From positions 199,150 to 263,149 of the forward strand of contig JACPKL010000005.1 of assembly GCA_016187035.1 (NCBI GenBank): DNA of 64,000 nucleotides, in the 5' to 3' direction. This document shows positions 3,237 to 56,181 of the stretch, piece after piece. The DNA comes from Candidatus Daviesbacteria bacterium. Its GTDB lineage: Bacteria; Patescibacteriota; Microgenomatia; Daviesbacterales; UBA10151. How positions within the stretch are numbered: position 1 is the stretch's first letter; the number at the start of each line of letters is the position of its first letter. The position numbers and the translations under genes are program-made. Under the pieces are notes generated by a model, which saw only the letters and a list, made by a program, of their open reading frames with translations, made no database searches and was not told the origin of the DNA.

Positions 3237-4024
3237 CTATTTGGGTGAATGCTATTGTACATAATGAGGAAAATTTTCTCTGGTTTGCTATTATGAGTGT
3301 GGTAGATTATGTTGATAAAGTTTTAGTATATGATACAGGTTCAACTGATAAAACTGTAGAGATAATAAGGGGAATAAGGGGGATTAAGGGGGATAAGGTG
3401 GAGTTTAAGGAGGTAGGTGTTGTTGATAAGGATAGGTTTCCTAAAATGCGTCAGGCTATGCTTGATGAGTCAAGATGTGATTGGATTTTAGTTTTAGATG
3501 GAGACGAAATTTGGTGGGAGGCTTCAATAAAAAAAGTTATAAATACTATCCAGAAAGAAGGAAATAAAATAGATGGAATTGTAGTGCCGATGATTGTTCC
3601 GGTGGGAGATATTTACCATTTTCAAGAAGAAAAGGCTGGGCAATATCAACTTTTGGGTAGAAAAGGGCATCTTAGTTTAAGGGCAATTAACAAAAAAATT
3701 CCTGGCCTTCATGTAGATTGGCCATATGGGAAGGAGAGTTATTTGGATAAAAACAATTCCCTGATTCAAGAAAGAGAAAATGTTATTTTTTTAGACAGCC
3801 CTTATCTGCATGTCACTCATCTTAAAAGATCTACTTCTAAGAGATGTTCCAATAAATTTAAACATGAATTGGGAAATATAAAAAAAGATTTTCAATATCC
3901 AGAAGTTTTTAGCAAAAGATTTCCTTCTATTGTTTCTTCACCCTGGCAAAAAATAAAAGGTGTAGATTTATTGATAGCAAAAGTATTAACACCATTTAGA
4001 AAAATTAAGAGGAGAATAAAATGA
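3233..4024 (+). CDS. GT2-family glycosyltransferase
   Basis: VYDTGSTDKT and VLDGDE (DxD) motifs of the GT-A fold. ATGA overlaps on both sides. Confidence 0.75.
   Translation: MTIWVNAIVHNEENFLWFAIMSVVDYVDKVLVYDTGSTDKTVEIIRGIRGIKGDKVEFKEVGVVDKDRFPKMRQAMLDESRCDWILVLDGDEIWWEASIKKVINTIQKEGNKIDGIVVPMIVPVGDIYHFQEEKAGQYQLLGRKGHLSLRAINKKIPGLHVDWPYGKESYLDKNNSLIQERENVIFLDSPYLHVTHLKRSTSKRCSNKFKHELGNIKKDFQYPEVFSKRFPSIVSSPWQKIKGVDLLIAKVLTPFRKIKRRIK
3369..3401 (+). repeat. In-CDS G-tract module (GGGGaataaGGGGGattaaGGGGGataaGGtGG)
   Basis: Three G4-5 runs at 9-10 nt spacing plus a split fourth run. Encodes RGIRGIKGDKV in a GT2 gene. Confidence 0.8.
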
Positions 4025-4728
4025 AGTTCTTCAAAAAAATGGGTAAATACACAGGTACTTCAACATTAGAGAGTATGAGCCAGGCAGAGTTTTATAATAA
4101 GTGGACTTTAAGTAAATTTAGAAAATATTTGAAAGGTGAAATATTGGAAATTGGTTGTGGAATAGGTAATTTTACTTCCACCTTATCTAAATTTGGAAAA
4201 GTTACCTCTATAGATATAGATAAGCATCTAATTGATATTTCCAGAAAAAATAATAGTTATAATATTCAAGTAGGTTTTGGGAATATAGAGAAAGGACAAT
4301 ATTTTTTTAAAGAAAAATTATTCGACACGGTAGTTTGTATAAATGTTTTAGAACATATTAATAATGATACCGAAGCTTTGAAGAATATGTTTAAACTTTT
4401 GAAAAAGGGTGGGAATTTAATTCTTTTGGTTCCCATTTACGATTTCTTATTTGGTGAAATAGATAAAGCTGTTTTGCATTTCCGAAGATATAACCCTGAT
4501 AATTTAGTTAAAGAAATGCAAGAGATAGGTTATACAGTTATTTCCCATAGAAAATTAAATTTTATAGGTGCAATTGGTTGGTTTATTTCCGGAAGAATAT
4601 TAAAAAATAAACAAATTACTGAGGGAAAAATAAAATTATTTAATTTATTTTCACCACTTTTATATTTAGAGAATATAATTGAACCACCAATAGGAACTTC
4701 GATTTTAGTAATTGTAGAGAAGGAATAA
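4021..4728 (+). CDS. Class I SAM-dependent methyltransferase
   Basis: Motif I ILEIGCGIGNFT and a later VVCINVLEHI segment, typical of the Methyltransf_11/23 type. Confidence 0.8.
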   Translation: MKFFKKMGKYTGTSTLESMSQAEFYNKWTLSKFRKYLKGEILEIGCGIGNFTSTLSKFGKVTSIDIDKHLIDISRKNNSYNIQVGFGNIEKGQYFFKEKLFDTVVCINVLEHINNDTEALKNMFKLLKKGGNLILLVPIYDFLFGEIDKAVLHFRRYNPDNLVKEMQEIGYTVISHRKLNFIGAIGWFISGRILKNKQITEGKIKLFNLFSPLLYLENIIEPPIGTSILVIVEKE

Positions 4729-4730
4729 AT

Positions 4731-5441
4731 TTGAAACTATCCATTATAATCCCTGTATATAATGAAGAAAAAACTATCGGTGAGCTTCTGCAAAAAGTTA
4801 ATAATCAAAAGCTACCCAAAGGTTTAATAAAAGAAATAATTGTTGTTGATGATGGTTCCTCAGATCTTACTCAAAATATTCTTAAGGGATATAAGAACAA
4901 GATGATAAAGGTTTTCCGGCATAAGGAAAACCTTGGTAAAGGAGCTGCAATAAGAACAGGACTGGAAAAAGTATCAGGAGAAATTTGTATAATCCAGGAT
5001 GCAGATTTGGAGTACGATCCTCAAGACTATCAGAGATTGCTTGACCCCATATTGAAAGATCAAACACAAGTTGTGTATGGTACCCGGTTAATTAATTACC
5101 CACTAAAGTTCTGGGGTCAAGAAAAAACTGTCTTACCCTTACATTTAATTGCTAATAGATTTTTAACTCTACTTACAAATATTCTATACGGAAGCAATTT
5201 AAGTGATATGGAAACAGGGTATAAACTATTTAGAAAAAAAGTGTTGGAAAATATAGTAGTAAACTCTCGTAAGTTTGATTTTGAAGCTGAAATAACGGCG
5301 AAGATCTTGAGGCAGGGTATTAAAATAGTGGAAGTTCCAATTAAATGTAAGCCACGTACATATAACGAAGGGAAAAAGATAAGCTGGAAGGATGGAGTTA
5401 GTGCAATTTGGACCCTTTTTAGGTATCGTTTAATTGATTAG
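4731..5441 (+). CDS. GT2 glycosyltransferase, polyprenol-phosphate sugar synthase (Dpm1/GtrB-like)
   Basis: LSIIIPVYNEEKTI, VVDDGSSDLT and IQDADLEYDP motifs. TTG start as in the track. Confidence 0.8.
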   Translation: MKLSIIIPVYNEEKTIGELLQKVNNQKLPKGLIKEIIVVDDGSSDLTQNILKGYKNKMIKVFRHKENLGKGAAIRTGLEKVSGEICIIQDADLEYDPQDYQRLLDPILKDQTQVVYGTRLINYPLKFWGQEKTVLPLHLIANRFLTLLTNILYGSNLSDMETGYKLFRKKVLENIVVNSRKFDFEAEITAKILRQGIKIVEVPIKCKPRTYNEGKKISWKDGVSAIWTLFRYRLID

Positions 5442-5444
5442 TTT

Positions 5445-6428
5445 ATGAAGATTTTATTTCTTAACAGGTATCAAAGTAGAATTGAAAGAGGAGCTGAAAG
5501 TTTTATTGGAGAGTTGAGTAGCAGATTATCCTTGAAACATTCTGTTGATATTTTTTCTGATAATAAAGCTGATTCATTAAAAGCAGTACTAAAAGGTAAA
5601 TACGATATTGTAGTTCCAGTAAACGGTAGATGGCAAAGTCTAAAGGTTTCTCTCGCAAAATACATAGGTGGATATAAGCAAAGCTTGAATTTTTCGCTTC
5701 GCTCAAAATATAAAGTATTAATTACTGGTCATAGCGGTCAGGGCTGGGATGATATTTGGAATATAGCTGTCGCTAAACCGGATGTATTTGTAGCACTGAC
5801 AGACAATATGGCGGCTTGGGCTAGAAAGTGGGCATGGGGCAGCAGGGTAGTAAAGATTCCAAATGGTATTGATTTAAGTAAATTTTCACCCAGAGGTGAG
5901 AAAATATATCTTGATTTACCAAGACCCATTATTTTATCTTGTGGAGCTTTAGTTTGGTATAAGCATCACGAAAAAGTAATTGATGCGGTTTCAAAGATGG
6001 ATGAAGGATCAGTATTAATAGTAGGTGAAGGGCGTTTAAAGGATGAGTTAATAAAAAGAGCTAATGAAACTTTAAGTAAAAGATTCATGATATTAAACGT
6101 TAAACATGAGGATATGCCAAAAATATATAGATCAGTAGATTTATTCACCCTTCCTTCTTGGGATAGAGAAGCGTTTGGTATTGTTTATTTGGAAGCTTTA
6201 GCATCTGGCTTAGGGATTGTGGCGCCAGATGACGCTACAAGAAGAGAGATAATAGGAGAGGCGGGAATACTAATCAATGAAAAAGATTCATTGATTTACG
6301 CAAAAGCCTTGGGTCAAGCTTTAAGAATGAATTGGGAAAATAAAGCTAGACTACAAGCAGAAAAATTTTCCTGGGAGAAAATTGCAAGACAATATGAGCA
6401 AATAATGATGGAGATTTTGCCAAAATGA
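5445..6428 (+). CDS. GT4-family (GT-B) glycosyltransferase
   Basis: C-terminal EAFGIVYLEALASGLGIVAPD (E-x7-E) and a KFSWEKIARQ tail shared with the other GT4 genes here. Confidence 0.8.
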   Translation: MKILFLNRYQSRIERGAESFIGELSSRLSLKHSVDIFSDNKADSLKAVLKGKYDIVVPVNGRWQSLKVSLAKYIGGYKQSLNFSLRSKYKVLITGHSGQGWDDIWNIAVAKPDVFVALTDNMAAWARKWAWGSRVVKIPNGIDLSKFSPRGEKIYLDLPRPIILSCGALVWYKHHEKVIDAVSKMDEGSVLIVGEGRLKDELIKRANETLSKRFMILNVKHEDMPKIYRSVDLFTLPSWDREAFGIVYLEALASGLGIVAPDDATRREIIGEAGILINEKDSLIYAKALGQALRMNWENKARLQAEKFSWEKIARQYEQIMMEILPK

Positions 6429-9967: not shown

Positions 9968-10981
9968 ATGCGTGTAGGAATGGATATTTCACAACTTGCA
10001 CATAAGGGAGGAGTAGTTACTTATACATTGAATTTAGCACAGCAGCTTTCTAGAGTTGAAGATTTAGATATGGTTTACTTTTTTTCTTCCCTAAGAAAAA
10101 AAGCCCCTCTTAATATTGATGGGAATATCAAAAAATTTTATCTACCTTCTACGCTTTTTGAAATGCTTTTTAATAAATGGAGAAATATACCAATTGAGAG
10201 ATTTATTGGAAAAGTGGATATATTTCATTCTTCTGATTGGATTCAACCTCCGTCTAGGGCTAAAAAAGTCACTACTTATCATGATGTTATTCCTCTAAAA
10301 TACCCGCAATGGTCCCACCCAAAAATTGTTGAAGTTCATAAGCGAAGGTTGAAATTAGTTGAGGATGAAATTGACATGGTGATTGCTGTTTCAGAAACCA
10401 CAAAAAAAGACTTGCTTGAAGTTTCCAGGATACCTGAGAAAAAAATTACTGTTATTTATGAAGGATCTACAATATCTAATAGCGTTAGAATCCAGAGTGA
10501 GGCTGAACTACGAAGATTTAGGGAGAAGTATAAGCTACCGGAAAGGTATATCCTAGCTATAGGAGGAGTAGGGGAAAGAAAAAACTTAAAAAGGGTGAAA
10601 GATGCTTGCCGCGGCTATAATTTGGTGATTGCAGGTGTTACACTCCCTTGGTTGAATATAGAAGAATTAAAGCTGCTTTATGCTTCTGCTGAGGTTTTGC
10701 TTTATCCGTCACTTTATGAAGGATTTGGTTTGCCGATATTGGATGCTCAAGCTTATGGATGTCCTGTTGTTACTTCTAATGTTTCCGCTATGCCTGAGGT
10801 AGCTGGAAAAGGCGCTATATTGGTAAACCCTTATTCAATTGAGGATATAATTAGAGGGATTAGGCAAGTTAAGGAAATTAGGGAAGAGGTTATACAAAAG
10901 GGTTTTGAGAATGTAAAAAGATTTTCCTGGGAAAAGTGTGCAAAAGAAACTGTAGAGGTGTACGGGAGGCTGATGAGATGA
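9968..10981 (+). CDS. GT4-family glycosyltransferase
   Basis: YEGFGLPILDAQAYGCPVVTSNVSAMPEVAG and [10 protein letters not shown]. Its C-terminal third is a close paralog of 50588..51754. Confidence 0.85.
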   Translation: MRVGMDISQLAHKGGVVTYTLNLAQQLSRVEDLDMVYFFSSLRKKAPLNIDGNIKKFYLPSTLFEMLFNKWRNIPIERFIGKVDIFHSSDWIQPPSRAKKVTTYHDVIPLKYPQWSHPKIVEVHKRRLKLVEDEIDMVIAVSETTKKDLLEVSRIPEKKITVIYEGSTISNSVRIQSEAELRRFREKYKLPERYILAIGGVGERKNLKRVKDACRGYNLVIAGVTLPWLNIEELKLLYASAEVLLYPSLYEGFGLPILDAQAYGCPVVTSNVSAMPEVAGKGAILVNPYSIEDIIRGIRQVKEIREEVIQKGFENVKRFSWEKCAKETVEVYGRLMR

Positions 10982-12108
10982 ATATCTGGATAGATGGGTA
11001 TGAAGCAAATGAATCCCAAAGACTTGGGTCCTCACAGGTAGCTTTTGAGCTGATAAAACATTTTGAAAAAATAGATAAGCAAAATACATATACAGTTTTG
11101 TTGCCGGGTAAACCTTTATATGATTTGCCTAAAGAAAGGAATGGATGGAGATATAAAGTTCTAAAACCTAAAAGACTTTGGACTAAGGTTGCTTTACCTT
11201 TGTCGTTGTATACTGCGAAACTGAAACCTCAAGTATTTTTTTCACCAACACATTATATTCCAAGCTTTTCACCCTCATCAGTTAAAAGAATAGTAACTAT
11301 ATTTGACTTATCTTTCCTGTATTTTCCAAAGATGTTTAATAAAAAAGATCTTTGGCAACTGATTAGTTGGACTAAATACTCCGCTTTGAATGCAGATCAT
11401 ATTATTACGATTTCTAATTTTTCTAAAAAAGATATTTGTGAGCAATACAAAGTTGATAAAAGTAGGGTTACAGTAGCTTATCCTGGATATGATAGAGATA
11501 AGTTCAAGGTTCAAGGTTCAAAGTTCAAAGTTGATGAAACTAAAAATAAATATAATTTAGGAGATAACTATAACTACATTATATATATAGGGACCATACA
11601 GCCTAGGAAAAATCTAATCAGATTAATTGAGGCAGTTTCACGGATAGATAATTTAGCTTTGGTAATTGTTGGTAAAACTTCAGGTGAAGGCAGAGGGGGT
11701 TGGATGTATGAAGAGACTTTATCAGCACCACAAGAATACGCAGTAGCAGATAGAGTTAAATTTTTGGGCTTTGTACCTACAGAAGATTTACTTTATTTAC
11801 TCTCTGGCGCTAAAGCGTATATTTTACCGTCACTTTGGGAGGGTTTTGGCATTCCGGTTTTAGAAGCGATGGCTTGTGGAGTGCCAGTAATAGTATCCAA
11901 TGTATCATCATTACCTGAAGTAGTTGGCAAAGCAGGACTTTTGATTGACCCTTATTCTGTTTCGCAGATAGAACAGGCAATTAGGACTGTTGTCACTGAT
12001 AAAAAATTGCAAAGTAAATATTCAAAAGCAGCTTTAGAACAAGTAAAGAAGTTTTCCTGGGAAAAAACAGCCAAGGCTGTTTTAAAAGTATTTGAAAACT
12101 TTGCTTAG
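10978..12108 (+). CDS. GT4-family glycosyltransferase
   Basis: WEGFGIPVLEAMACGVPVIVSNVSSLPEVVG and KFSWEKTAKA. The ATG at 10978 has GGGAGG 11 nt upstream and overlaps the upstream stop (ATGA). The track start at 10936 was rejected. Confidence 0.85.
   Translation: MNIWIDGYEANESQRLGSSQVAFELIKHFEKIDKQNTYTVLLPGKPLYDLPKERNGWRYKVLKPKRLWTKVALPLSLYTAKLKPQVFFSPTHYIPSFSPSSVKRIVTIFDLSFLYFPKMFNKKDLWQLISWTKYSALNADHIITISNFSKKDICEQYKVDKSRVTVAYPGYDRDKFKVQGSKFKVDETKNKYNLGDNYNYIIYIGTIQPRKNLIRLIEAVSRIDNLALVIVGKTSGEGRGGWMYEETLSAPQEYAVADRVKFLGFVPTEDLLYLLSGAKAYILPSLWEGFGIPVLEAMACGVPVIVSNVSSLPEVVGKAGLLIDPYSVSQIEQAIRTVVTDKKLQSKYSKAALEQVKKFSWEKTAKAVLKVFENFA
11504..11538 (+). repeat. Heptanucleotide tandem array TCAAGGT x2, TCAAAGT x2, TGATGAA inside a GT4 gene
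   Basis: Read directly. Encodes KFKVQGSKFKVDE. Confidence 0.9.
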
Positions 12109-12109
12109 T

Positions 12110-12146
12110 TTGGACTATTAGGACAACATATCCAAGGACCGTCCCC
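12110..12146 (+). repeat. Family-A repeat copy A1 (core AAGGACCGTCCCC at 12134-12146; left part diverged)
   Basis: Shares the invariant 11-mer AGGACCGTCCC. Intergenic, 45 nt upstream of the acetyltransferase ATG. Confidence 0.7.
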
Positions 12147-12191
12147 AATGTGTTTGCTTATGGAAGACTATATCCAATATAATTAGTTGAT

Positions 12192-22227: not shown

Positions 22228-22247
22228 CGGATAAAGAAGAGGCAAAA

Positions 22248-22300
22248 ATAAATTATGCTATATTTAGGTTGTTGTATCAATATTTCTTAGGACCGTCCCT
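22248..22300 (+). repeat. Family-A repeat copy A2 (..TATTTAGGTTGTTGTATCAATATTTCTTAGGACCGTCCCT)
   Basis: Aligns over about 50 nt with copies A4-A6. Intergenic between the DUF4012-like gene and recO. Confidence 0.8.
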
Positions 22301-22367
22301 AATGAAACATTAGTCAGTAACAGGAGAGTGCATAATCAGTTACTAGAAATAATTAAATCCATTCTAC

Positions 22368-22425
22368 CTAAAGGTGTGAAGCTAGTAGTAGTACACCCTT
22401 AGGGTGTGCAATGCAAGTGCAAACT
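22368..22425 (+). repeat. Family-B hairpin repeat B1 (orphan copy)
   Basis: AAAGGTGTGAAGCTAGTAGTAGTACACCCTTAGGGTGTGCAATGCAAGTGC. Stem ACACCC/GGGTGT with loop TTA. No transposase nearby. Confidence 0.8.
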
Positions 22426-28761: not shown

Positions 28762-29412
28762 TTAAGGATTAGGCTGCGGATTTGAAGAATCTGGGGGATT
28801 AAAGTATCTAATCAGATTCTCAATATGCTGAGGTACAGGGGTGGCAGGGGATTTACCTTGAATTAAGGATAGAGCTTCATCCATACCTTGCACTAGAAGA
28901 GTAAGATCGAAAAATCCCTGCCTTAATCCTGTTAATGTTTCTGGATTAGTTGACGACGGATCACCTTCTAAACTCGCGATTCTATCTGCCAATCTATCTC
29001 CTGTTTGCGCATATAGTACGAGACGCCTTTGAGCTTGTTCTATTCCTTCCTGAGTTTGGACTGAGGCCATTGTTAAATCTCTGACGTATTTTCTTGCAAT
29101 GGTTCCTAAGGACGGTTCAGAATCCTCAGGATTTCCATTTATGGATCCATCTTCCATAGCTTTCCCAACCTGACCCAATCTATGAAGAGTATGAAACAGC
29201 ACGTTTCTAGTTGTAGTCCGTGTTCCTGTAAGAGATTTATCATCTACCGCAGATAATAAGCAGGCTACAAAAGTCAAAGTCGCAAGTGTCATTGCCTTTC
29301 TCTCAACTTGAGATAGATGGTCCATTCCAGGATTGTTAAGTGTTATATTTGCTTCTGATCCAGTGCTAGTATCTGTTACCTGTATTTTTCTTAGTCGATC
29401 TGGTGTTGACAT
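28762..29412 (-). CDS. Hypothetical protein (ORFan), antisense to the dcw operon
   Basis: 216 aa, no recognised motif, visibly more G+C-rich than its neighbours. Own sigma70-like promoter. Its stop lies 5 nt from the ftsI stop (convergent). Confidence 0.55.
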   Translation of the reverse strand: MSTPDRLRKIQVTDTSTGSEANITLNNPGMDHLSQVERKAMTLATLTFVACLLSAVDDKSLTGTRTTTRNVLFHTLHRLGQVGKAMEDGSINGNPEDSEPSLGTIARKYVRDLTMASVQTQEGIEQAQRRLVLYAQTGDRLADRIASLEGDPSSTNPETLTGLRQGFFDLTLLVQGMDEALSLIQGKSPATPVPQHIENLIRYFNPPDSSNPQPNP

Positions 29413-29466: not shown

Positions 29467-29518
29467 GGGGACGGTCCTAGAATTTACAGTTATAACAATC
29501 TAAATAAGTCAAACTTTT
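29467..29518 (-). repeat. Family-A repeat copy A3 (inverted; overlaps the RAYT stop codon)
   Basis: The minus strand reads TTATTTAGATTGTTATAACTGTAAATTCTAGGACCGTCCCC. Confidence 0.8.
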
Positions 29519-30159
29519 CTTCTTCTCAAATATTTTCTTTTAGAAAGGGTATTAAATTTATTTGATCCAATAGTCGCTTCTTCCTTTTCAAATAATTCGT
29601 CTATTTCAGCAAAATCTTTAGAAATTCCATCATAAATAAATTTTTCATATTCCTTTCTTGAATTATGTGAATCCCCAATCAGTCTTACAATATCTCTATC
29701 TAGTATTTTGAAAGCCTCCATTCCTATTGCTTCCTTAAAACTACTGTATAAATAATCCCTTGGATCTGAAACTAGTCCTGCTTTCACTGGATTTAAATAG
29801 ATATATTGAGATAGTTTTAGAAAGTATGAATCATTCTCAATTAATATGCTTTTAAATCTATTTTGGAAAACTGGCCCAAAGTGTTGAAAAGTTTTATTAA
29901 AATACATTGAATAACTAGTTGTCAGCGAAGACATTATTTTGGATATTGGAATTTTCCTGGTTTGAATAGAGATATGAAAGTGATTAGGCATTAAACAGAA
30001 AGCATAGATAGAATGATCGTATTTATCTTTTAATTGTAGAAGCTTTCTTAGAAAAAAGTTATAATCAGCTTCAGAGAGAAAAATTGGTTGTTTATTAATC
30101 CCTCTGTTAAATACATGATAAAAAGCGTTTTGGAAAGTAAATCTTGGGCCTCTAGGCAT
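29509..30159 (-). CDS. REP-associated tyrosine transposase-like protein (RAYT / IS200-like Y1 HUH transposase)
   Basis: FYHVFNRG, an HUH triad in CLMPNHFHISI, and the catalytic-Tyr helix QYIYLNPVKAGL (PF01797-type). The track start at 30204 (TTG) was trimmed to the ATG at 30159 (MPRGPRF...). Confidence 0.85.
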   Translation of the reverse strand: MPRGPRFTFQNAFYHVFNRGINKQPIFLSEADYNFFLRKLLQLKDKYDHSIYAFCLMPNHFHISIQTRKIPISKIMSSLTTSYSMYFNKTFQHFGPVFQNRFKSILIENDSYFLKLSQYIYLNPVKAGLVSDPRDYLYSSFKEAIGMEAFKILDRDIVRLIGDSHNSRKEYEKFIYDGISKDFAEIDELFEKEEATIGSNKFNTLSKRKYLRRRKV

Positions 30160-30215
30160 TAATAAAACTATGTCATTTCTAGGTTGTTCTGTCAAGCTTA
30201 TCAAGGACCGTCCCC
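30153..30215 (+). repeat. Family-A repeat copy A4; left member of the 63-bp direct repeat framing murE
   Basis: TAGGCATTAATAAAACTATGTCATTTCTAGGTTGTTCTGTCAAGCTTATCAAGGACCGTCCCC. By manual alignment, 61/63 identical to 31372-31434. Confidence 0.9.
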
Positions 30216-31381
30216 TTCTTCAGAAGTTAAAAAACATTTTTTATCATTTGCCGCAGGCTTTTATAGCTAATATTTTATATGGGTTTCCGTCAAATGGTAT
30301 GACGATTGTTGGAGTAACTGGGACTGATGGAAAAACAACTACTACTAATTTGATTTATAAAATCCTTAAAGATTCAGGCAAAAAGGTCTCAATGATTTCT
30401 ACTATTAATGCTGTGATAGGGGGGAAAACCTATGACACCGGTTTTCATGTAACTAGTCCAGATCCTTTTACGTTGCAAAAATTTATTAGAAATGCAAAAA
30501 ATTCAGGGGATAATTACTTAGCTTTGGAAGTCACCTCACATGCTTTAGACCAATACAGATTCTGGGGGATTAATTTTACAGTTGGGGTAATCACCAATAT
30601 AACTCATGAACATTTAGATTACCATCAGACTTTTGAAAATTATTTTAAGACTAAATTAAAGCTTATTAAATATGCTAAGTGGAGGGTTGTTAATGAAAAT
30701 CTGAAGGGAGATTGGGGTGATAGGGGAAGTAAGGGTAATGGGGTAGTCACATTTGGTAGCAGTGGCCCCAAGCTTAATTTAAAACTAATAGGTGATTATA
30801 ATCTTGAAAATGCTTATGCCTCTTTGGCTGTAGCTAAGGTTTTAGGAATTGATGCAGAAAGCGCCCAAAGATCTGTGGAAGGGTTTACAGGTATTCCTGG
30901 AAGAATGGAAGAAGTAAAAAACAATAGGGGTATTAAAATATTTGTTGATTTTGCTCATACTCCGAATGCCTTAAAGCAAGCTCTTAAAGCTTTACGTCCC
31001 AAGGCATACGGAAGATTGATTGTTGTTTTTGGGGCTGCTTCAGAAAGAGATATTTTGAAACGTCCCATTATGGGAGAAATTGCTGCAAAAGAAGCTGATA
31101 TGACTATACTGACTGATGAAGATCCAAGGCACGAAGATAGAAATAAAATCTTAAATGAAATTGCCGGAGGAGCTATGATGGCGGGAGCAAAAGATGGGAT
31201 AAATCTATTTAAGGAACCGGATAGAGCTAAAGCTATTAAGTTGGCTATAACTTTAGCCAAAAAAGGAGATATAATAGGAATTTTTGGAAAAGGTCACGAA
31301 AAATCAATTAATTATAGGGGAGTGGAAACTCCGTGGTCAGATTTTGAGGCAGTAAAGAAAGCTTTAACTAATAGGCATTAA
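30170..31381 (+). CDS. murE: UDP-N-acetylmuramoyl-L-alanyl-D-glutamate--(2,6-diaminopimelate or L-lysine) ligase MurE (short form)
   Basis: GVTGTDGKTTTT P-loop, HEHLDYHQTFENYF and VDFAHTPNALKQAL. EDPR sits at the DNPR position. The ATG at 30170 lies inside repeat A4; an alternative ATG at 30299 sits just before the P-loop. Confidence 0.85.
   Translation: MSFLGCSVKLIKDRPLLQKLKNIFYHLPQAFIANILYGFPSNGMTIVGVTGTDGKTTTTNLIYKILKDSGKKVSMISTINAVIGGKTYDTGFHVTSPDPFTLQKFIRNAKNSGDNYLALEVTSHALDQYRFWGINFTVGVITNITHEHLDYHQTFENYFKTKLKLIKYAKWRVVNENLKGDWGDRGSKGNGVVTFGSSGPKLNLKLIGDYNLENAYASLAVAKVLGIDAESAQRSVEGFTGIPGRMEEVKNNRGIKIFVDFAHTPNALKQALKALRPKAYGRLIVVFGAASERDILKRPIMGEIAAKEADMTILTDEDPRHEDRNKILNEIAGGAMMAGAKDGINLFKEPDRAKAIKLAITLAKKGDIIGIFGKGHEKSINYRGVETPWSDFEAVKKALTNRH
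30706..30743 (+). repeat. In-CDS G-tract module, canonical G4 motif (GGGagattGGGGtgataGGGGaagtaaGGGtaatGGGG)
   Basis: Five G3-4 runs starting at 30706, 30714, 30723, 30733 and 30740. Encodes KGDWGDRGSKGNG in murE. Confidence 0.85.
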
Positions 31382-31434
31382 TGAAACTATGTCATTTCTA
31401 GATTGTTCTGTCAAGCTTATCAAGGACCGTCCCC
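31372..31434 (+). repeat. Family-A repeat copy A5; right member of the 63-bp direct repeat framing murE
   Basis: TAGGCATTAATGAAACTATGTCATTTCTAGATTGTTCTGTCAAGCTTATCAAGGACCGTCCCC. Contains the murE stop codon. Confidence 0.9.
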
Positions 31435-41061: not shown

Positions 41062-41316
41062 ATGAAAAATAGGATTGAGTATGAGAGTGATAAAGACCAT
41101 TTAAAAAGATATGATAATGTTTTGGAAGGCATGCAAAGAGCGTATGAATTTTTTTATGACCTAGCAGAAGTATTTCCTAATAGACTAACTAAGGGTTTGG
41201 TTGAAAAAGCAATGGTTCTGTTAGAGCGGATATCTTACGAGAGTATCGGTAGGAGAAGGTTTTTTAGATTGACTGGATTTATCCGTGTACCACTGACTTG
41301 CAAAACCCACCCTTAG
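41062..41316 (+). CDS. Hypothetical small protein
   Basis: 84 aa, starting 4 nt after the ftsZ stop. No recognised motif. Its 3' end overlaps the family-B hairpin B2, so the C-terminus may be element-derived. Confidence 0.35.
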   Translation: MKNRIEYESDKDHLKRYDNVLEGMQRAYEFFYDLAEVFPNRLTKGLVEKAMVLLERISYESIGRRRFFRLTGFIRVPLTCKTHP

Positions 41317-41340
41317 GGTGTGTAATGTAATGTAAGTGTA
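41300..41340 (+). repeat. Family-B hairpin repeat B2
   Basis: CAAAACCCACCCTTAGGGTGTGTAATGTAATGTAAGTGTAAG. Lies 5-45 nt beyond the transposase stop. Confidence 0.8.
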
Positions 41341-41344
41341 AGAT

Positions 41345-42016
41345 TCACTCTAGGGCTAAATGTTTAATTTTATCTAATTCTCTCTGATAATCAACTTGAT
41401 CATTGGTGAACTGGATAAATTTATTTACAGATGGGAAATAACTGAGGATTACATTAGTATTTATAATGTCTGATGTTTGTTTACCTAAATAAGTAGAAAA
41501 GGAGGACCAGGGATAGGTTGTTAGTTGTTCAATGGTTTTCAGAATAAAAGCTGTGACAGGATTTAAGTGGATATAACGAGCTACATGAATTAACTGTTCA
41601 TCTGTTTCTATCCTGACTGCTTTGAACATAGTTTGAAATAAACTTCCACTGCGTTTTGTTTTTATATTAAAATATTTAGCATAACTGTTTTGGAAGTTAC
41701 TCATAAAAGTTGATATCCCTTTTTGTTTTATTTCTTTAATTAGGAAATGAATATGGTTAGGCATGAGGCAAAAAGTCATTATTTCAACTTGTTTTTCTCC
41801 TTTTCTTAAATTTGCCATGAATTCGGTTTTTTGCGCTTCAGGCATGCGTTTATAATGAGAAAAACGGATAGAAGGATTAAAATAACTATAGAAAGTTAGG
41901 ACATCTAAAGCCCTTTGGTAATCATAAGTTGAGAGAAAAATTGGTTGTTTTGCAATACTTCTATTAAATACATGGTAAATTTCACCCACAGCTAATGGGG
42001 TTTTTCTAATAGTCAC
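41345..42016 (-). CDS. RAYT / IS200-like Y1 HUH transposase (second paralog)
   Basis: IYHVFNRS, an HUH triad in CLMPNHIHFLI, and the Tyr helix ARYIHLNPVTAFI. 223 aa. Confidence 0.85.
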   Translation of the reverse strand: MTIRKTPLAVGEIYHVFNRSIAKQPIFLSTYDYQRALDVLTFYSYFNPSIRFSHYKRMPEAQKTEFMANLRKGEKQVEIMTFCLMPNHIHFLIKEIKQKGISTFMSNFQNSYAKYFNIKTKRSGSLFQTMFKAVRIETDEQLIHVARYIHLNPVTAFILKTIEQLTTYPWSSFSTYLGKQTSDIINTNVILSYFPSVNKFIQFTNDQVDYQRELDKIKHLALE

Positions 42017-42037
42017 TTATCCATGATAAAATAGTTA

Positions 42038-42085
42038 CCCAAAGGTGTCAAGCTAGTACACCCTTAGGGTGTAATGTAATGCTGC
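42038..42085 (+). repeat. Family-B hairpin repeat B3
   Basis: CCCAAAGGTGTCAAGCTAGTACACCCTTAGGGTGTAATGTAATGCTGC. Lies 22-70 nt upstream of the transposase start. Confidence 0.8.
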
Positions 42086-50002: not shown

Positions 50003-50591
50003 ATTTTACTCTAAAACATACTCGCTTGAGTATCTTATTCAAAATGCCTTTTATCACCTTAAATTTTTTAACGCTATTTGGGAGGAATCTCCTAAAAAAA
50101 TACTGGAAGTAGGAGTGGGAACAGGTTCCATGTCGATCTTTTTTTCCTATTTAGGTTTGGATGTTACTGGTTTGGATAATGATAAAGATATTTTAAAAAG
50201 GGTTTCAGATTTAACTAAAAAGCTAAACGGGAAAGTTAAATTAGTTTTAGGAAACGCCTTAAAGCTTCCGTTTAAAAGTAAATCTTTTGATCTAATATTT
50301 CATCAGGGTTTTTTGGAGCATTTTGAGGAGAAAGAAATTATTGAGCTTCTTTGGGAGCAGTTGAGGGTTAGTCAAACAGTGGTTTTTAGCGTCCCAAACA
50401 ACTTTTATCAAAAAAAAGATTTTGGTGATGAGAGATTACTGTCCAAAGCTTACTGGGATAAACTGTTACAAACAAACTATAATTTAATAGAAAGCCAAAA
50501 TTATAACCCTGTCAGAAAAACTTTTTTTAAAGGACGCTTGCCATATAAAGTAGTCCAAAATATGTATTTTGCCAAAATAACAAAAAAGTGA
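49983..50591 (+). CDS. Class I SAM-dependent methyltransferase
   Basis: Motif I ILEVGVGTGSMS, then DLIFHQGFLEHF. Confidence 0.75.
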   Translation: MKKNWDKFYSKTYSLEYLIQNAFYHLKFFNAIWEESPKKILEVGVGTGSMSIFFSYLGLDVTGLDNDKDILKRVSDLTKKLNGKVKLVLGNALKLPFKSKSFDLIFHQGFLEHFEEKEIIELLWEQLRVSQTVVFSVPNNFYQKKDFGDERLLSKAYWDKLLQTNYNLIESQNYNPVRKTFFKGRLPYKVVQNMYFAKITKK

Positions 50592-51754
50592 AAAAAATAG
50601 CAGTTGATTTAAGACCTCTTGAGAGCCCAACAGGCAAAAGAGGCGTAGGTTATTTTAACAGGCATCTTTTTAAGGCATTACTAGAAAAGCCTCATCCTGA
50701 TTTTAAATTTAATCTTTTTACTTTCCCAAACAGCAGGCTGCAAAACGGGTTTAAGGTGGGGCCGGATGATAAGTTCCAATCAGTTCCCGCCCTATATTGG
50801 CCCAAGAAAGGACTTAGAAGGTTTGATCCGCTATTTTCATTAATTTGGTCCCGCACTATCAATACACTAAAACCCGATCTTTTACACATCCCTTTCCTCT
50901 TTGATGTTTATTATCTGGCAGTTTTGGATAATATCAGGGTGGTTGTGACCCTTTATGACACTATTCCGCTTACTTTTCCAAAAGAGTATTTCCAAAATGA
51001 GAAAGCAAAGCTTTGGTATATGGAAAGATTGACTCAGGCAAAAAAGGCAGCAAAGATTATCACTATTTCCAAGTCATCAAAAAAAGACATAGAAAGATTA
51101 TTAGAAATTCCGCCAGAAAAAATTAAAGTAATTTATGGGGGAATTGACCAGAAATTTAAAGTCATGGAAATACTGAAAATTAGGGAGACTCTGAGGAAAT
51201 ATAAAATCAAAACACCGTATATTTTAACAGTTAGTACCCACAGTTTTCATAAAAATATAGAAAGAATTTTTCAGGCTTTTAAGAAATATATGATAGAAGA
51301 AAAGAATGCACAGTTAATTTTAGTAGTAGTCTGCAGATTGATTTCTGGTGAAAAACGGGATTGGGTGAAACAATTAAAAGAGCTTGGGATAGAAAAAAGG
51401 GTAATACTTACAAACTTTGTTGAGGATGATGATTTACCTGCAATTTATAATGGGGCTAAATTATTTTTATTTCCTTCACTATATGAGGGATTGGGGTTAC
51501 CAATACTGGAAGCCCAGGCTTGTGGCTGTCCGGTGATTACTTCAAATATTTCATCCATGCCTGAGGTGGCTGGGAAAGGGGCAATCCTGGTAGATCCTTA
51601 CTCAACTAAAGATATTATCAGGGGGGTTAGGGAAGTTAGGGAAATTAGGGAAGAATTGATAAAAAAAGGATTTGAGAATGTAAAAAGATTTTCCTGGGAA
51701 AAATGTGCAAGGGAAACGCTGGAAGTATACAGAGAAATTCTACAAGGCCATTAA
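50588..51754 (+). CDS. GT4-family glycosyltransferase (paralog of 9968..10981)
   Basis: [41 protein letters not shown]...[10 protein letters not shown]. Shares an identical 32-nt run with the 10.9-kb paralog. Confidence 0.85.
51621..51650 (+). repeat. In-CDS G-tract module, canonical G4 motif (GGGGGGttaGGGaagttaGGGaaattaGGG)
   Basis: TTAGGG at 51627, 51636 and 51645, an exact 9-nt period. Encodes [10 protein letters not shown] in a GT4 gene. The paralog at 10857-10883 holds a decayed version. Confidence 0.85.
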
Positions 51755-53648: not shown

Positions 53649-53720
53649 GCGGTGGTAGTTCAGTGGTAGAATGTCTCCTTCCCAAGGAGAAGGTCGGGGG
53701 TTCAAATCCCCTCCACCGCT
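53649..53720 (+). tRNA. tRNA-Gly (anticodon CCC)
   Basis: Acceptor GCGGTGG/CCACCGC, D arm GTTC-AGTGGTA-GAAT, anticodon stem TCTCC/GGAGA with loop TTCCCAA, T arm GGGGG-TTCAAAT-CCCCT, discriminator T. No CCA encoded. Confidence 0.9.
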
Positions 53721-53779
53721 CGTGGTAGAGCAATCCCTTCGTAAGGGAAAGATCGTGAGTTCAAATCCCACCGTTGGCT
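53718..53779 (+). pseudogene. 5'-truncated tRNA-Thr (anticodon CGT) fragment fused to the 3' end of tRNA-Gly
   Basis: A D arm (GCTC-GTGGTA-GAGC), an anticodon arm with loop TTCGTAA, a T arm (GTGAG-TTCAAAT-CCCAC, one A.C mismatch) and the 3' acceptor strand CGTTGGC are present. The complementary 5' acceptor strand (GCCAACG) and nt 8-9 are missing. Confidence 0.6.
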
Positions 53780-53785
53780 CACTTA

Positions 53786-53837
53786 AAAACTATGATTAAT
53801 TTAGGTTGTTGTACCAATCTATTTAAGGACCGTCCCC
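53786..53837 (+). repeat. Family-A repeat copy A6
   Basis: AAAAACTATGATTAATTTAGGTTGTTGTACCAATCTATTTAAGGACCGTCCCC, starting a few nt after the tRNA-Thr fragment. Confidence 0.85.
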
Positions 53838-55506: not shown

Positions 55507-56181
55507 TTATCTGGGGATAGTTAAGACCTGTCCAGGATAAATTAGGTCAGGATTGGAAATATTATTGGCTTCAGCTATTTTTTGATAGGTAAAGATATCA
55601 CCATAAGCACGGCCTGCTATGATAGATAACCAATCTCCTTCTTGCACTGTATAAGTATTGCCCGTAATTTTTGGCCCCCACTGTGCATCTGCAGTAGTAT
55701 TGTCAGTTGTATTTGGGGTCGTTATTTCTGGTGAAGGGGAAGGAGAAGGGGTTTCTGAGGGGTTAGGTAAAGATGCTATTTCTAGTTTGGGGATTTCTAG
55801 AACCTGCCCTGCTGTAATAGCATCAACATCAGTTAGATTATTAGCTTTGGCCAGATCTTCAAATTTACTCCCATCCTGATAATATTTTTCTGCGATAGTA
55901 AACAGAGTATCACCTTCCTTGACAGTATATTTACCTGGAAGTTGATTTGGATTAGCATCTTGTTGTTCTTCAGTGGTAGTTTGAGCAGGACCAAGGTCTG
56001 GTTTGTTTCTGTTAAAGTAGTTAAAAATTAAAATACCTACTACTAAAACAATTAAAGCTCCTAAAATCATGTTCAATTTAGATTGATTTGAGGAAACTTC
56101 ATGGTTAACTCTCTCAAGATAACTTTCGTTTTGTTTAGATTCTTCTAATTTCTTAGGTTTTCCTCGTTGAGCCATTAGCAA
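55507..56181 (-). CDS. Membrane-anchored protein with two LysM domains
   Basis: TM helix, then YTVKEGDTLFTIAEKYY...ITAGQVLEIP and YTVQEGDWLSIIAGRAY...IYPGQVLTIP, separated by a PS/T-rich linker. Confidence 0.88.
   Translation of the reverse strand: MLMAQRGKPKKLEESKQNESYLERVNHEVSSNQSKLNMILGALIVLVVGILIFNYFNRNKPDLGPAQTTTEEQQDANPNQLPGKYTVKEGDTLFTIAEKYYQDGSKFEDLAKANNLTDVDAITAGQVLEIPKLEIASLPNPSETPSPSPSPEITTPNTTDNTTADAQWGPKITGNTYTVQEGDWLSIIAGRAYGDIFTYQKIAEANNISNPDLIYPGQVLTIPR

Follow-up and report, generated by a model that had tools for sequence, protein, structure and literature searches.

A probable TIRtron with orphan repeats at gene boundaries in a Candidatus Daviesbacteria contig

Positions 29467-30215 of a 64,000-nucleotide stretch of a Candidatus Daviesbacteria contig (JACPKL010000005.1; the whole 64-kb stretch is called the window below) contain the gene of a Y1 HUH enzyme, RAYT-A, enclosed by inverted repeats of about 55 nt in the gap between ftsI and murE. 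Four further copies of the repeat lie at gene boundaries elsewhere in the window, to which all counts on the source genome refer. The name stands for REP-associated tyrosine transposase (RAYT), REP being the repetitive extragenic palindrome. Genomes of the Candidate Phyla Radiation (CPR), to which this lineage belongs, are tiny and thought to be poor in repetitive DNA. To our knowledge, the way in which RAYT repeats spread and the role of the class flanked by terminal inverted repeats (TIRs; TIRYT, subclass 2.1) are unresolved, and we know of no biochemistry on that class. Parts of Di Nocera et al. (2013, PMC3733652) describe RAYT-like genes flanked by long TIRs and not by GTAG REPs, under the names TIRYT and TIRtron. 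The features of the unit and its repeats are the following.

29509..30159, minus strand: RAYT-A, a Y1 HUH gene (RAYT/TIRYT-type) of 216 aa, start MPRGPRF, Pfam Y1_Tnp
30153..30215, plus strand: upstream terminal inverted repeat (IRL), outer end AGGACCGTCCCC at 30204-30215
29467..29520, minus strand: downstream terminal inverted repeat (IRR), outer end GGGGACGGTCCT at 29467-29478, overlapping the RAYT-A stop
30167..30195, minus strand: sigma70-like promoter in IRL facing RAYT-A, TTGACA-17-(TG)CATAGT, ending 7 nt before the ATG
12092..12147, plus strand: orphan single copy, IRR-like, overlapping the stop of open reading frame (ORF) 10936-12108
22246..22300, plus strand: orphan single copy in the DUF4012-recO spacer, with an inward TTGATA-17-CATAAT on the minus strand
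31372..31434, plus strand: orphan single copy, 97% identical to IRL, retaining 7 nt of the RAYT 5' end (TAGGCAT)
53783..53837, plus strand: orphan single copy abutting a truncated tRNA-Thr-like fragment on its upstream side, with a reiterated outer flank (CAGATTA AGATTCG CAGATTCC)

The RAYT-A gene and its repeats

RAYT-A contains the motifs YHVFNRG, NHFHISI and YIYLNPVKAGL, from which a first-pass annotation of the window had recognized a transposase signature in ORF 29509..30159(-), and also VFQNRF and YSSF. The search with PF01797 (Y1_Tnp) that this annotation had proposed gave a match above the curated cutoff (4.7e-13; 49.8 bits, cutoff 23). With the NCBIfam models the protein scored 76 bits against REP_Tyr_transpos, just under the cutoff of 80, and 13.6 bits against IS200 (TnpA_IS200), where the cutoff of 55 was not reached; on these profile scores RAYT-A is much nearer to REP-associated tyrosine transposases than to IS200. 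The catalytic His and Tyr residues, whose conservation had been named as a decisive point, are invariant in 29 homologs as part of N59, H60, H62 and Y119-x3-N123-P124, and H60, H62 and Y119 persist in relatives at 32-59% identity. The best solved relative by sequence is TnpAREP of E. coli (4ER8), with whose HMH and YIYINP motifs the HUH and Y motifs of RAYT-A align. An AlphaFold2 (AF2) model of RAYT-A (predicted local distance difference test score, pLDDT, 78.8) also had 4ER8_A as its top Foldseek match in the PDB (E 1.7e-8, TM(target) 0.76); the IS200, IS608 and ISDra2 transposases came next. No Pfam match was obtained for residues 141-216 even at E <= 10, and the C-terminal end of the model is a helical tail only.

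The 11-mer AGGACCGTCCC has six exact matches in the window, at 12135+, 22289+, 29468-, 30204+, 31423+ and 53826+; the first-pass annotation had counted the copies correctly, with coordinates that were off by one. Shuffled versions of the window gave a mean of 0.13 matches, none of 100 shuffles reached six, and permitting one mismatch added no further match in the window. Every copy is the terminus of a repeat of about 55 nt with the consensus AAAACTATG..TTT-RGRTTG-N6-CAA..N-AGGACCGTCCC-Y-A-A. The upstream part of this consensus had been noticed in four or five copies, but an alignment of all copies placed it (AAAACTATG..TTTAGRTTGTT-N15-11-mer) in the six of them, that at 12135 being the most divergent. 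A profile from which the 11-mer had been removed retrieved the same six copies from the window (E 2e-6 to 3e-4) and no credible decayed copy devoid of the 11-mer, the sole candidate, at 56062 (E = 0.07), being coding and lacking the terminus; all the detectable copies in the window therefore have an intact terminus. The copies at 29468(-) and 30204(+) bracket ORF 29509-30159(-) in inverted orientation, the arms, of about 55 nt, being 71-75% complementary to other copies. Over 63 nt, the copies at 30204 and 31423 share 97% identity; they form direct repeats on either side of murE.

The copies begin at, or no more than about 20 nt from, the 3' end of the upstream gene, and they adjoin or overlap gene ends. 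Their first description as intergenic is thus only roughly right, since the copy at 30204 holds the annotated ATG of murE and the RAYT-A start codon (30157-30159, overlapped by IRL), that at 31423 holds the murE stop, and those at 12135 and 29468 overlap stop codons. The orphan at 53826 directly follows a tRNA-Thr(CGT)-like fragment (53722-53782) that is truncated at its 5' side, begins at the D-loop (GTGGTAGAGCA) and adjoins the 3' end of tRNA-Gly(CCC) (53649-53721); neither ARAGORN nor Rfam called this fragment.

Folded as single-stranded DNA (ssDNA), five distinct window copies gave no hairpin and were no more stable than shuffles (z = +0.2 to +0.8), in agreement with the initial remark that the repeat has no convincing stem-loop. 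A GTAG foot is likewise absent from the window repeats, and the difference from textbook REPs noted at the outset holds, the repeats being those of a TIR-flanked variant instead. The consensus palindrome AGATTG-N6-CAATCT ends 5 nt before the 11-mer and showed no significant covariation in 91 arms when compared with column shuffles, its outermost pair excepted; a hairpin in the single repeat was considered and not taken as established because only this pair exceeded the shuffles and the window singlets were unfolded. The terminus includes GGAC-C-GTCC, a palindrome of the double-stranded DNA (dsDNA) type. The only known RNA families found in the window with Rfam were tRNAs.

Promoter-like hexamers occupy a conserved position in the unit: the sigma70-like site in IRL has counterparts of the form TTGACA/TTGGCA-N17-(C/A)ATA(G/C)T upstream of the homologs in three related loci (L001, L003 and L076). 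This arrangement suggests that the RAYT mRNA may be leaderless or near-leaderless and, since the site lies inside the upstream repeat, autoregulation by binding of the enzyme would be expected. The orphans at 31423 and 22289 retain promoter-like hexamers that read antisense into the upstream gene. Just outside IRR, at 29454-29426, a near-consensus promoter (TTGACA-17-TAGAAT, 11/12) precedes ORF 28762-29412. It is the one of the two sigma70-like sites initially placed downstream of repeat copies, at 29468 and 12135, that was recovered; the other failed the promoter scan.

Related loci and the boundaries of murE

RAYT-A is 100% identical to a Candidatus Daviesbacteria 'transposase' at NCBI. Its homologs at 70-83% identity comprise more than 100 cluster representatives, drawn from Daviesbacteria, Levybacteria, Curtissbacteria and other Microgenomates. 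The whole unit of gene and inverted repeats with the same 11-mer was found in Daviesbacteria, Levybacteria, Curtissbacteria and Gottesmanbacteria. Homologs fetched by protein are found among unrelated genes in L001 (Daviesbacteria) and L003-L006 (Levybacteria); each of them lies between GGGACGGTCCT...AGGACCGTCCC with a spacing of about 740 nt, and units with the 11-mer on both sides are present also in L026, L027, L032 and others. A genome scan with the pattern TNTRGRTTG-N17-AGGACCGTCCC returned 69 loci, for which about 17 chance matches are estimated from pattern complexity and database size, high-GC singletons being probable chance matches. The scan yielded 11 further gene-flanking pairs, 15 gene-less doublets from related genomes with cores 118-149 nt apart, and many singlets, several of them in the same metagenome-assembled genome (MAG) in some cases. 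RAYT relatives at 51-59% identity, among these pairs, have the 11-mer at each end, and a relative at 43% has it at one end. Gene-less doublets from different genomes are uniform in size (about 130-160 nt) and fold as long ssDNA hairpins (z = -2.4 to -8.6); the window has singlets only and no doublets. Sorting orphans and doublet arms into gene-upstream and gene-downstream types with position matrices gave noisy assignments. RAYT-A occurs once in the 64 kb and once per fetched locus. Viral contigs gave no DNA or protein match, nor was there any PADLOC match.

About 24 of the scan matches were labelled as Gammaproteobacteria. These are third-party annotation (TPA) MAGs named 'uncultured Gammaproteobacteria bacterium' with a GC content of 35-48% (L007, L013, L014, L018, L019, L024 and about 18 more). 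L039 and L061, which bear the same label, are syntenic with a Curtissbacteria contig at 78-91% nucleotide identity and L040 is syntenic with the Levybacteria contig of L003; a transfer to Gammaproteobacteria was rejected and the labels were judged wrong. L040 has, within 3571-5461, an upstream-type arm at the site where L003 has the RAYT unit and, 1.8 kb away, a decayed downstream-type arm (AGGGCCATCCC), with a predicted Phd-like/PIN-like pair and a 307-aa ORF between the arms in place of the RAYT gene. Full-length homologs on proteobacterial plasmids (31-34% identity, 94% coverage) have TIRs with GGGGTCAG, GGGGACAG or AGGGTCAG: exact GGGGTCAG is found in the TIR of the R. rubrum plasmid homolog and exact GGGGACAG in that of P. 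aeruginosa. One record of a Pseudomonas plasmid contains a relative at 3 places.

Three relatives with the orthologous region allow the sites to be compared with and without the repeats.

L077, fully syntenic: ftsI-murE gap of 22 nt with no RAYT unit; murE and murB overlapping; DUF4012-recO spacer of 24 nt
L076: RAYT unit adjoining murE in the ftsI-murE gap; no orphan at murE-murB
L080: RAYT unit adjoining ftsI; no orphan at murE-murB; a different cargo gene between RAYT and murE

In all three loci no repeat separates murE from murB, which overlap or adjoin each other, and the 11-mer is absent from 21 kb of syntenic L077. Compared with these syntenic relatives, at least two orphans, those at 22289 and 31423, are on sequence evidence lineage-specific insertions. 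Presence and absence of copies in related genomes, which the first-pass annotation had suggested looking for, is thus seen for the unit and two orphans in L077 and for the murE-murB orphan in L076 and L080. Since the unit of L076 and L080 also lies at ftsI-murE, and their IRLs are orthologous to that of the window, the RAYT unit is an old resident of this gap in one subclade. The contigs with the nearest MurE homologs (64-67% identity) also carry the closest RAYT homologs (79-82%). Identity to the syntenic copies is 79-81% for RAYT-A and 58-78% for the neighbouring cell-wall genes; cross-class RAYT-A matches reach 73-76% identity, and no MurE match outside Daviesbacteria exceeds about 57%. By these identities RAYT-A is at least as conserved as every syntenic neighbour, which points to purifying selection.

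The repeats seem to have changed both ends of murE. The murE genes of L076 and L077 each possess a TGGTATAAT box and a start codon of their own. In the window the distance from the end of the repeat to the murE core is shorter by about 60 nt, and these box and start features are missing; the only plausible start appears to be the ATG of the repeat's ACTATG motif at 30170, inside IRL, in which case the 11-mer encodes K-D-R-P. The NCBI annotation gives an identical 403-aa MurE product. At the other end, the orphan at 31423 provides (31372-31384) the last codons and the stop of murE (..NRH and stop), and the ancestral sequence in which the murE stop and murB start overlap is present on both sides of this orphan. 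The fusion of a repeat end to the essential murE gene would be a concrete case in which repeats alter where genes begin and end.

Between ftsI and the RAYT unit lies ORF 28762-29412(-), of 216 aa, with a GC content of about 41% against 34.6% for the window. Searches of Pfam, NCBIfam, PADLOC and PHROG gave no match for it, and L076, L077 and L080 have no counterpart; it is probably acquired cargo in the ftsI-murE gap.

Flank reiteration and strand orientation

The outer flank of the repeat termini is tandemly reiterated in many loci, typically as AGGACC[GTCCC-X][GTCCC-X] with 2-3 copies, in which X is locus-specific, 5-12 nt long and often ends in C or CC; examples are L035, L033, L041, L008, L023, L046, L064, the downstream repeat of L003 and the upstream repeat of L080. 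Taking recurrence of the first flank 6-mer within 36 nt as the criterion, 54 of 104 distinct ends are reiterated (binomial p ~4e-42). The same criterion gave 4.9% at random positions, 7.5% behind stop codons and 5/101 for the inner flanks of the repeat. Reiteration was seen at 48% of gene-flanking ends, 67% of doublet ends and 44% of singlet ends, and because the two ends of one doublet differ in X it is not a target-site duplication. The reiterated units begin preferentially at positions 4-6 of the 11-mer, G6 being the most frequent start, and a second group of starts falls at 9-10. In the window, the flanks of 31423 (ATGGAT) and 53826 (CAGATT) are reiterated and that of 29468 partly so. In two loci (L018, 3191-3260; L073, 304-345) the repeat terminus itself is tandem, with two 11-mers 27-32 nt apart and with GTCCC pentamers (L018) or CCCTAAACTT (L073) as reiterated units; these are extreme cases of flank reiteration. 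In the literature searched we found no description of flank duplication beside REP or TIR ends, and the signature does not figure in the relevant parts of PMC3733652, PMC6006769 and PMC5581495.

The GC skew is positive throughout the window, and its plus strand is therefore the leading-strand sequence, that is, the lagging-strand template. All four window orphans read ...AGGACCGTCCCC on the G-rich strand, as do 29 of 41 singlets elsewhere; counted per locus by a hand tally, with absolute skew > 0.05, the ratio is roughly 14 vs 5. By analogy with IS608, such a bias would fit single-strand targeting.

Assignment, rival explanations and a second paralog

We consider it likely that 29467-30215 is a TIRtron, that is, a TIRYT-type gene of the RAYT class of Y1 HUH enzymes within terminal inverted repeats of about 55 nt, and that the orphans are its non-autonomous derivatives. 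The core of the first-pass annotation, a RAYT-like HUH enzyme with its own inverted repeats and orphan copies, is borne out by protein family, structure, the recurrence of the unit across genomes and the empty sites. The motifs of RAYT-A, the TIR start GGGGACGG and the TIR-flanked plasmid homologs make it, most probably, a TIRYT-type member, neither a canonical REP/RAYT nor an IS200. The TIRYT/TIRtron kind is already known, though it has received little study, and the locus is an added member of it, in a CPR lineage.

In the sections of Di Nocera et al. that describe them, the TIRs share GGGGWSAS, sometimes overlap gene ends and are moderately abundant as singles and dimers. RAYT-A agrees in being a RAYT-like Y1 gene in long non-GTAG terminal inverted repeats that overlap its 5' and 3' ends, in repeats of moderate copy number found as singles and dimers, and in having proteobacterial plasmid homologs flanked by TIRs with GGGGTCAG and GGGGACAG. 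Its outer motif, GGGGACGG, is close to GGGGWSAS, with 7/8 positions identical and G for A at position 7. According to portions of Quentin et al. (2018, PMC6006769), most TIRYTs fall in TnpAY1 subclass 2.1, which lacks REP hairpins, has the motifs NH[YF]H, FQ (replacing W), Y[IV]HLNP and an SS tail motif, and carries a distal C-terminal HTH-like (helix-turn-helix) domain (Bac_DnaA_C, HTH_23 or HTH_28). RAYT-A shows NHFH, FQ, YIYLNP (Y for H at position 3) and YSS; it differs in its length of 216 aa against a median of 238, in having no HTH-like distal C-terminal domain by Pfam, in a TIR of about 55 nt with a terminus of 11-12 nt conserved across classes, and in its host, a CPR lineage (Microgenomates) for which we found no earlier report in the literature searched. 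For group 1 RAYTs, also among the nearest known systems, sections of PMC5581495 (Bertels) report about 12 genome-wide occurrences of the flanking 16-mers.

The E. coli REPtron (TnpAREP, YafM, 4ER8) is, of all solved proteins, the one that RAYT-A matches best in sequence and in structure; the two can be aligned at the HUH and Y-x-x-x-NP motifs, cognate repeats flank the gene in inverted orientation, and dispersed extragenic copies lie near gene 3' ends. However, the repeats described here have neither a 5' GT[AG]G foot nor a stable hairpin in the single copy, the GTAG-recognition residues (W94/Q95 region) correspond to FQ in RAYT-A, and the copies in the 64 kb are far fewer than the hundreds in E. 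coli. REP doublets forming hairpins (REPINs), as presented in parts of Bertels and Rainey (2011, PMC3116915), resemble the gene-less inverted doublets of about 140 nt with long hairpins, which are also MITE-like, and RAYT-A, as the associated gene, is apparently single-copy and slowly evolving. They differ in that doublets occur here in related genomes only, the window having singlets, that the arms, of about 50 nt, are imperfect and not themselves hairpins, and that the orphan at 31423 directly reproduces the resident gene-proximal end and is not a half-doublet. With the IS200/IS605 family (IS608 and ISDra2 TnpA) RAYT-A shares the Y1 HUH fold, by analogy with which single-strand cleavage chemistry would be expected, and a strand bias consistent with the lagging-strand template, whereas its Y motif is ...NP and not ...Q, its ends are inverted repeats where IS200/IS605 elements have same-strand subterminal hairpins, tnpB is missing and RAYT-A is not repeated in the window.

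By analogy with E. coli TnpAREP and IS608 TnpA, RAYT-A would recognize the conserved terminus on ssDNA, the lagging-strand template by orientation, nick it with a 5'-phosphotyrosine link and then rejoin it. The outer 11-12 nt of the repeats (GGGGACGGTCCT / AGGACCGTCCCC) are the same throughout Microgenomates, and the enzyme may have acted in trans on the four other copies deposited at gene boundaries. The starts of the reiterated units suggest the junction between AGGACC and GTCCC as a candidate nick site. The reiteration would be accounted for best in three steps: after a nick at this junction, the 3'-OH would be briefly extended by strand-displacement synthesis and the tyrosine-linked 5' end would then be resealed by the enzyme, preferably onto a 3' end like ...CC. 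Rather tentatively, and with the odds somewhat against it, flank reiteration could be read as the in vivo scar of Y1 action. If so, the scars would reveal a domesticated RAYT/TIRYT system continuously active and vertically inherited across Microgenomates, more conserved than the neighbouring essential cell-wall genes, with repeats open to co-option, for example as the start of murE, and the cleavage site of a RAYT class of unresolved mechanism could be read from sequence alone.

Several points weigh against this assignment and its mechanism. The link between protein and repeat is drawn from homology and sequence. Unfolded singlets and the lack of significant covariation outside one pair make it hard to explain how a lone copy would be recognized as ssDNA. 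The invariance of the 11-mer is partly so by construction, 69 loci having been fetched with it, and the loci free of this ascertainment are those fetched by protein (L001-L006, L076 and L080). The orientation bias is modest and confounded with gene orientation. The reiterated units do not all start at one place but at positions 3-6 and 9-10, and the reiteration might alternatively come from slippage at a protein-bound end. Finally, the varied contexts between classes and the multi-copy Pseudomonas plasmid relatives give some support to horizontal or autonomous mobility of the whole unit.

That mobility is the essence of the strongest rival, an autonomous selfish insertion sequence (IS) moving whole, whose orphans would be solo ends left by deletion of full copies. 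It would account for the unrelated contexts of the unit in L001, L003 and the window, for its placement, within one clade, on one or the other side of cargo genes between ftsI and murE, for a cross-class protein identity that is flat (73-76%) and not obviously tree-like, for the three places of the Pseudomonas relative in one record, for L040, where both ends remain around other genes and the RAYT gene is missing, and for the 7 nt of RAYT 5' end kept by the orphan at 31423. We nevertheless regard it as unlikely. There is a single RAYT-A in the 64 kb and one per fetched locus, and its syntenic position in the clade, with less divergence than its essential neighbours, fits vertical inheritance under selection. 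The uniform size of the 15 doublets (about 130-160 nt) fits the propagation of a miniature element over independent deletions, and no RAYT pseudogene fragments lie beside the orphans. As established for IS608, a Y1 enzyme works on a single strand, on which two inverted ends could not both be processed to excise the whole unit.

A second rival is a host promoter, operator or protein-binding site serving the downstream genes, with the RAYT gene merely one of its targets. The first-pass annotation, which had offered a regulatory or operator role as an alternative, correctly observed that the CCCC end of five of the six copies faces a co-directional gene; the distance is 42-170 nt. The dsDNA-type palindrome GGAC-C-GTCC, the promoter-like hexamers inside the repeat and the apparent start of murE inside IRL would agree with such a site. 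As a primary function, however, we think it quite improbable: the orthologous sites in L077, L076 and L080 are empty and the same genes abut or overlap there, the internal promoter-like sites point away from the downstream gene, towards RAYT-A or antisense into the upstream gene, and the downstream genes are unrelated in function. Insertion strand bias explains the orientation equally well, and in many genomes the repeat also occurs as gene-less doublets and encloses a transposase homolog. Least probable of all is a structured RNA (a small RNA, terminator or stabilizer of the 3' untranslated region, 3'-UTR) transcribed at gene ends, since the singlets fold no better than shuffles, covariation is absent, Rfam matches are tRNAs only and window scans found no terminator-like sites, even though the copies lie at or within about 20 nt of the 3' end of the upstream gene and REPs of other bacteria can act in 3'-UTRs according to parts of the literature.

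As a probable TIRtron, the locus extends the TIRYT class to the CPR and would offer a clean test system, with an invariant terminus of 11-12 nt, a compact enzyme of 216 aa, natural empty sites and gene-less doublets, and with a statistically strong flank reiteration that, if a scar, predicts a specific nick site.

The window contains a second Y1 paralog, RAYT-B (41345-42016, minus strand; 223 aa, 33% identical to RAYT-A, Y1_Tnp 3.7e-11), with a repeat of its own at 41290-41345, 42035-42085 and 22355-22420. This repeat consists of AAGGTGTSAAGCTAGT followed by a perfect hairpin, ACACCC-TTA-GGGTGT, and its reverse complement provides TTGACA-N17-TATCAT-N6-GTG upstream of the gene. In 80 metagenome loci, a hairpin of this kind flanks the RAYT-B homologs (43-66% identity), mostly in inverted orientation, while the two copies beside the gene in the window are direct. 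The stems vary between loci by compensatory changes (CCACCT/AGGTGG, CAACCT/AGGTTG, CAAACC/GGTTTG) and both flanks of each homolog carry matching stems; L040 also has a copy of this repeat, with the stem CCACCT/AGGTGG. Short-period direct repeats, a reiteration resembling that beside the RAYT-A-type termini, are found at RAYT-B-type flanks in 18-25% of loci versus 2.3% of controls.

Finally, a direct repeat of 287 nt (77% identity) occurs at 10677-10963 and 51444-51730, with 40.8 kb between its copies. It is located inside ORFs 9968-10981/10936-12108 and 50588-51754, which are probably paralogous genes, and related short repeat families exist.

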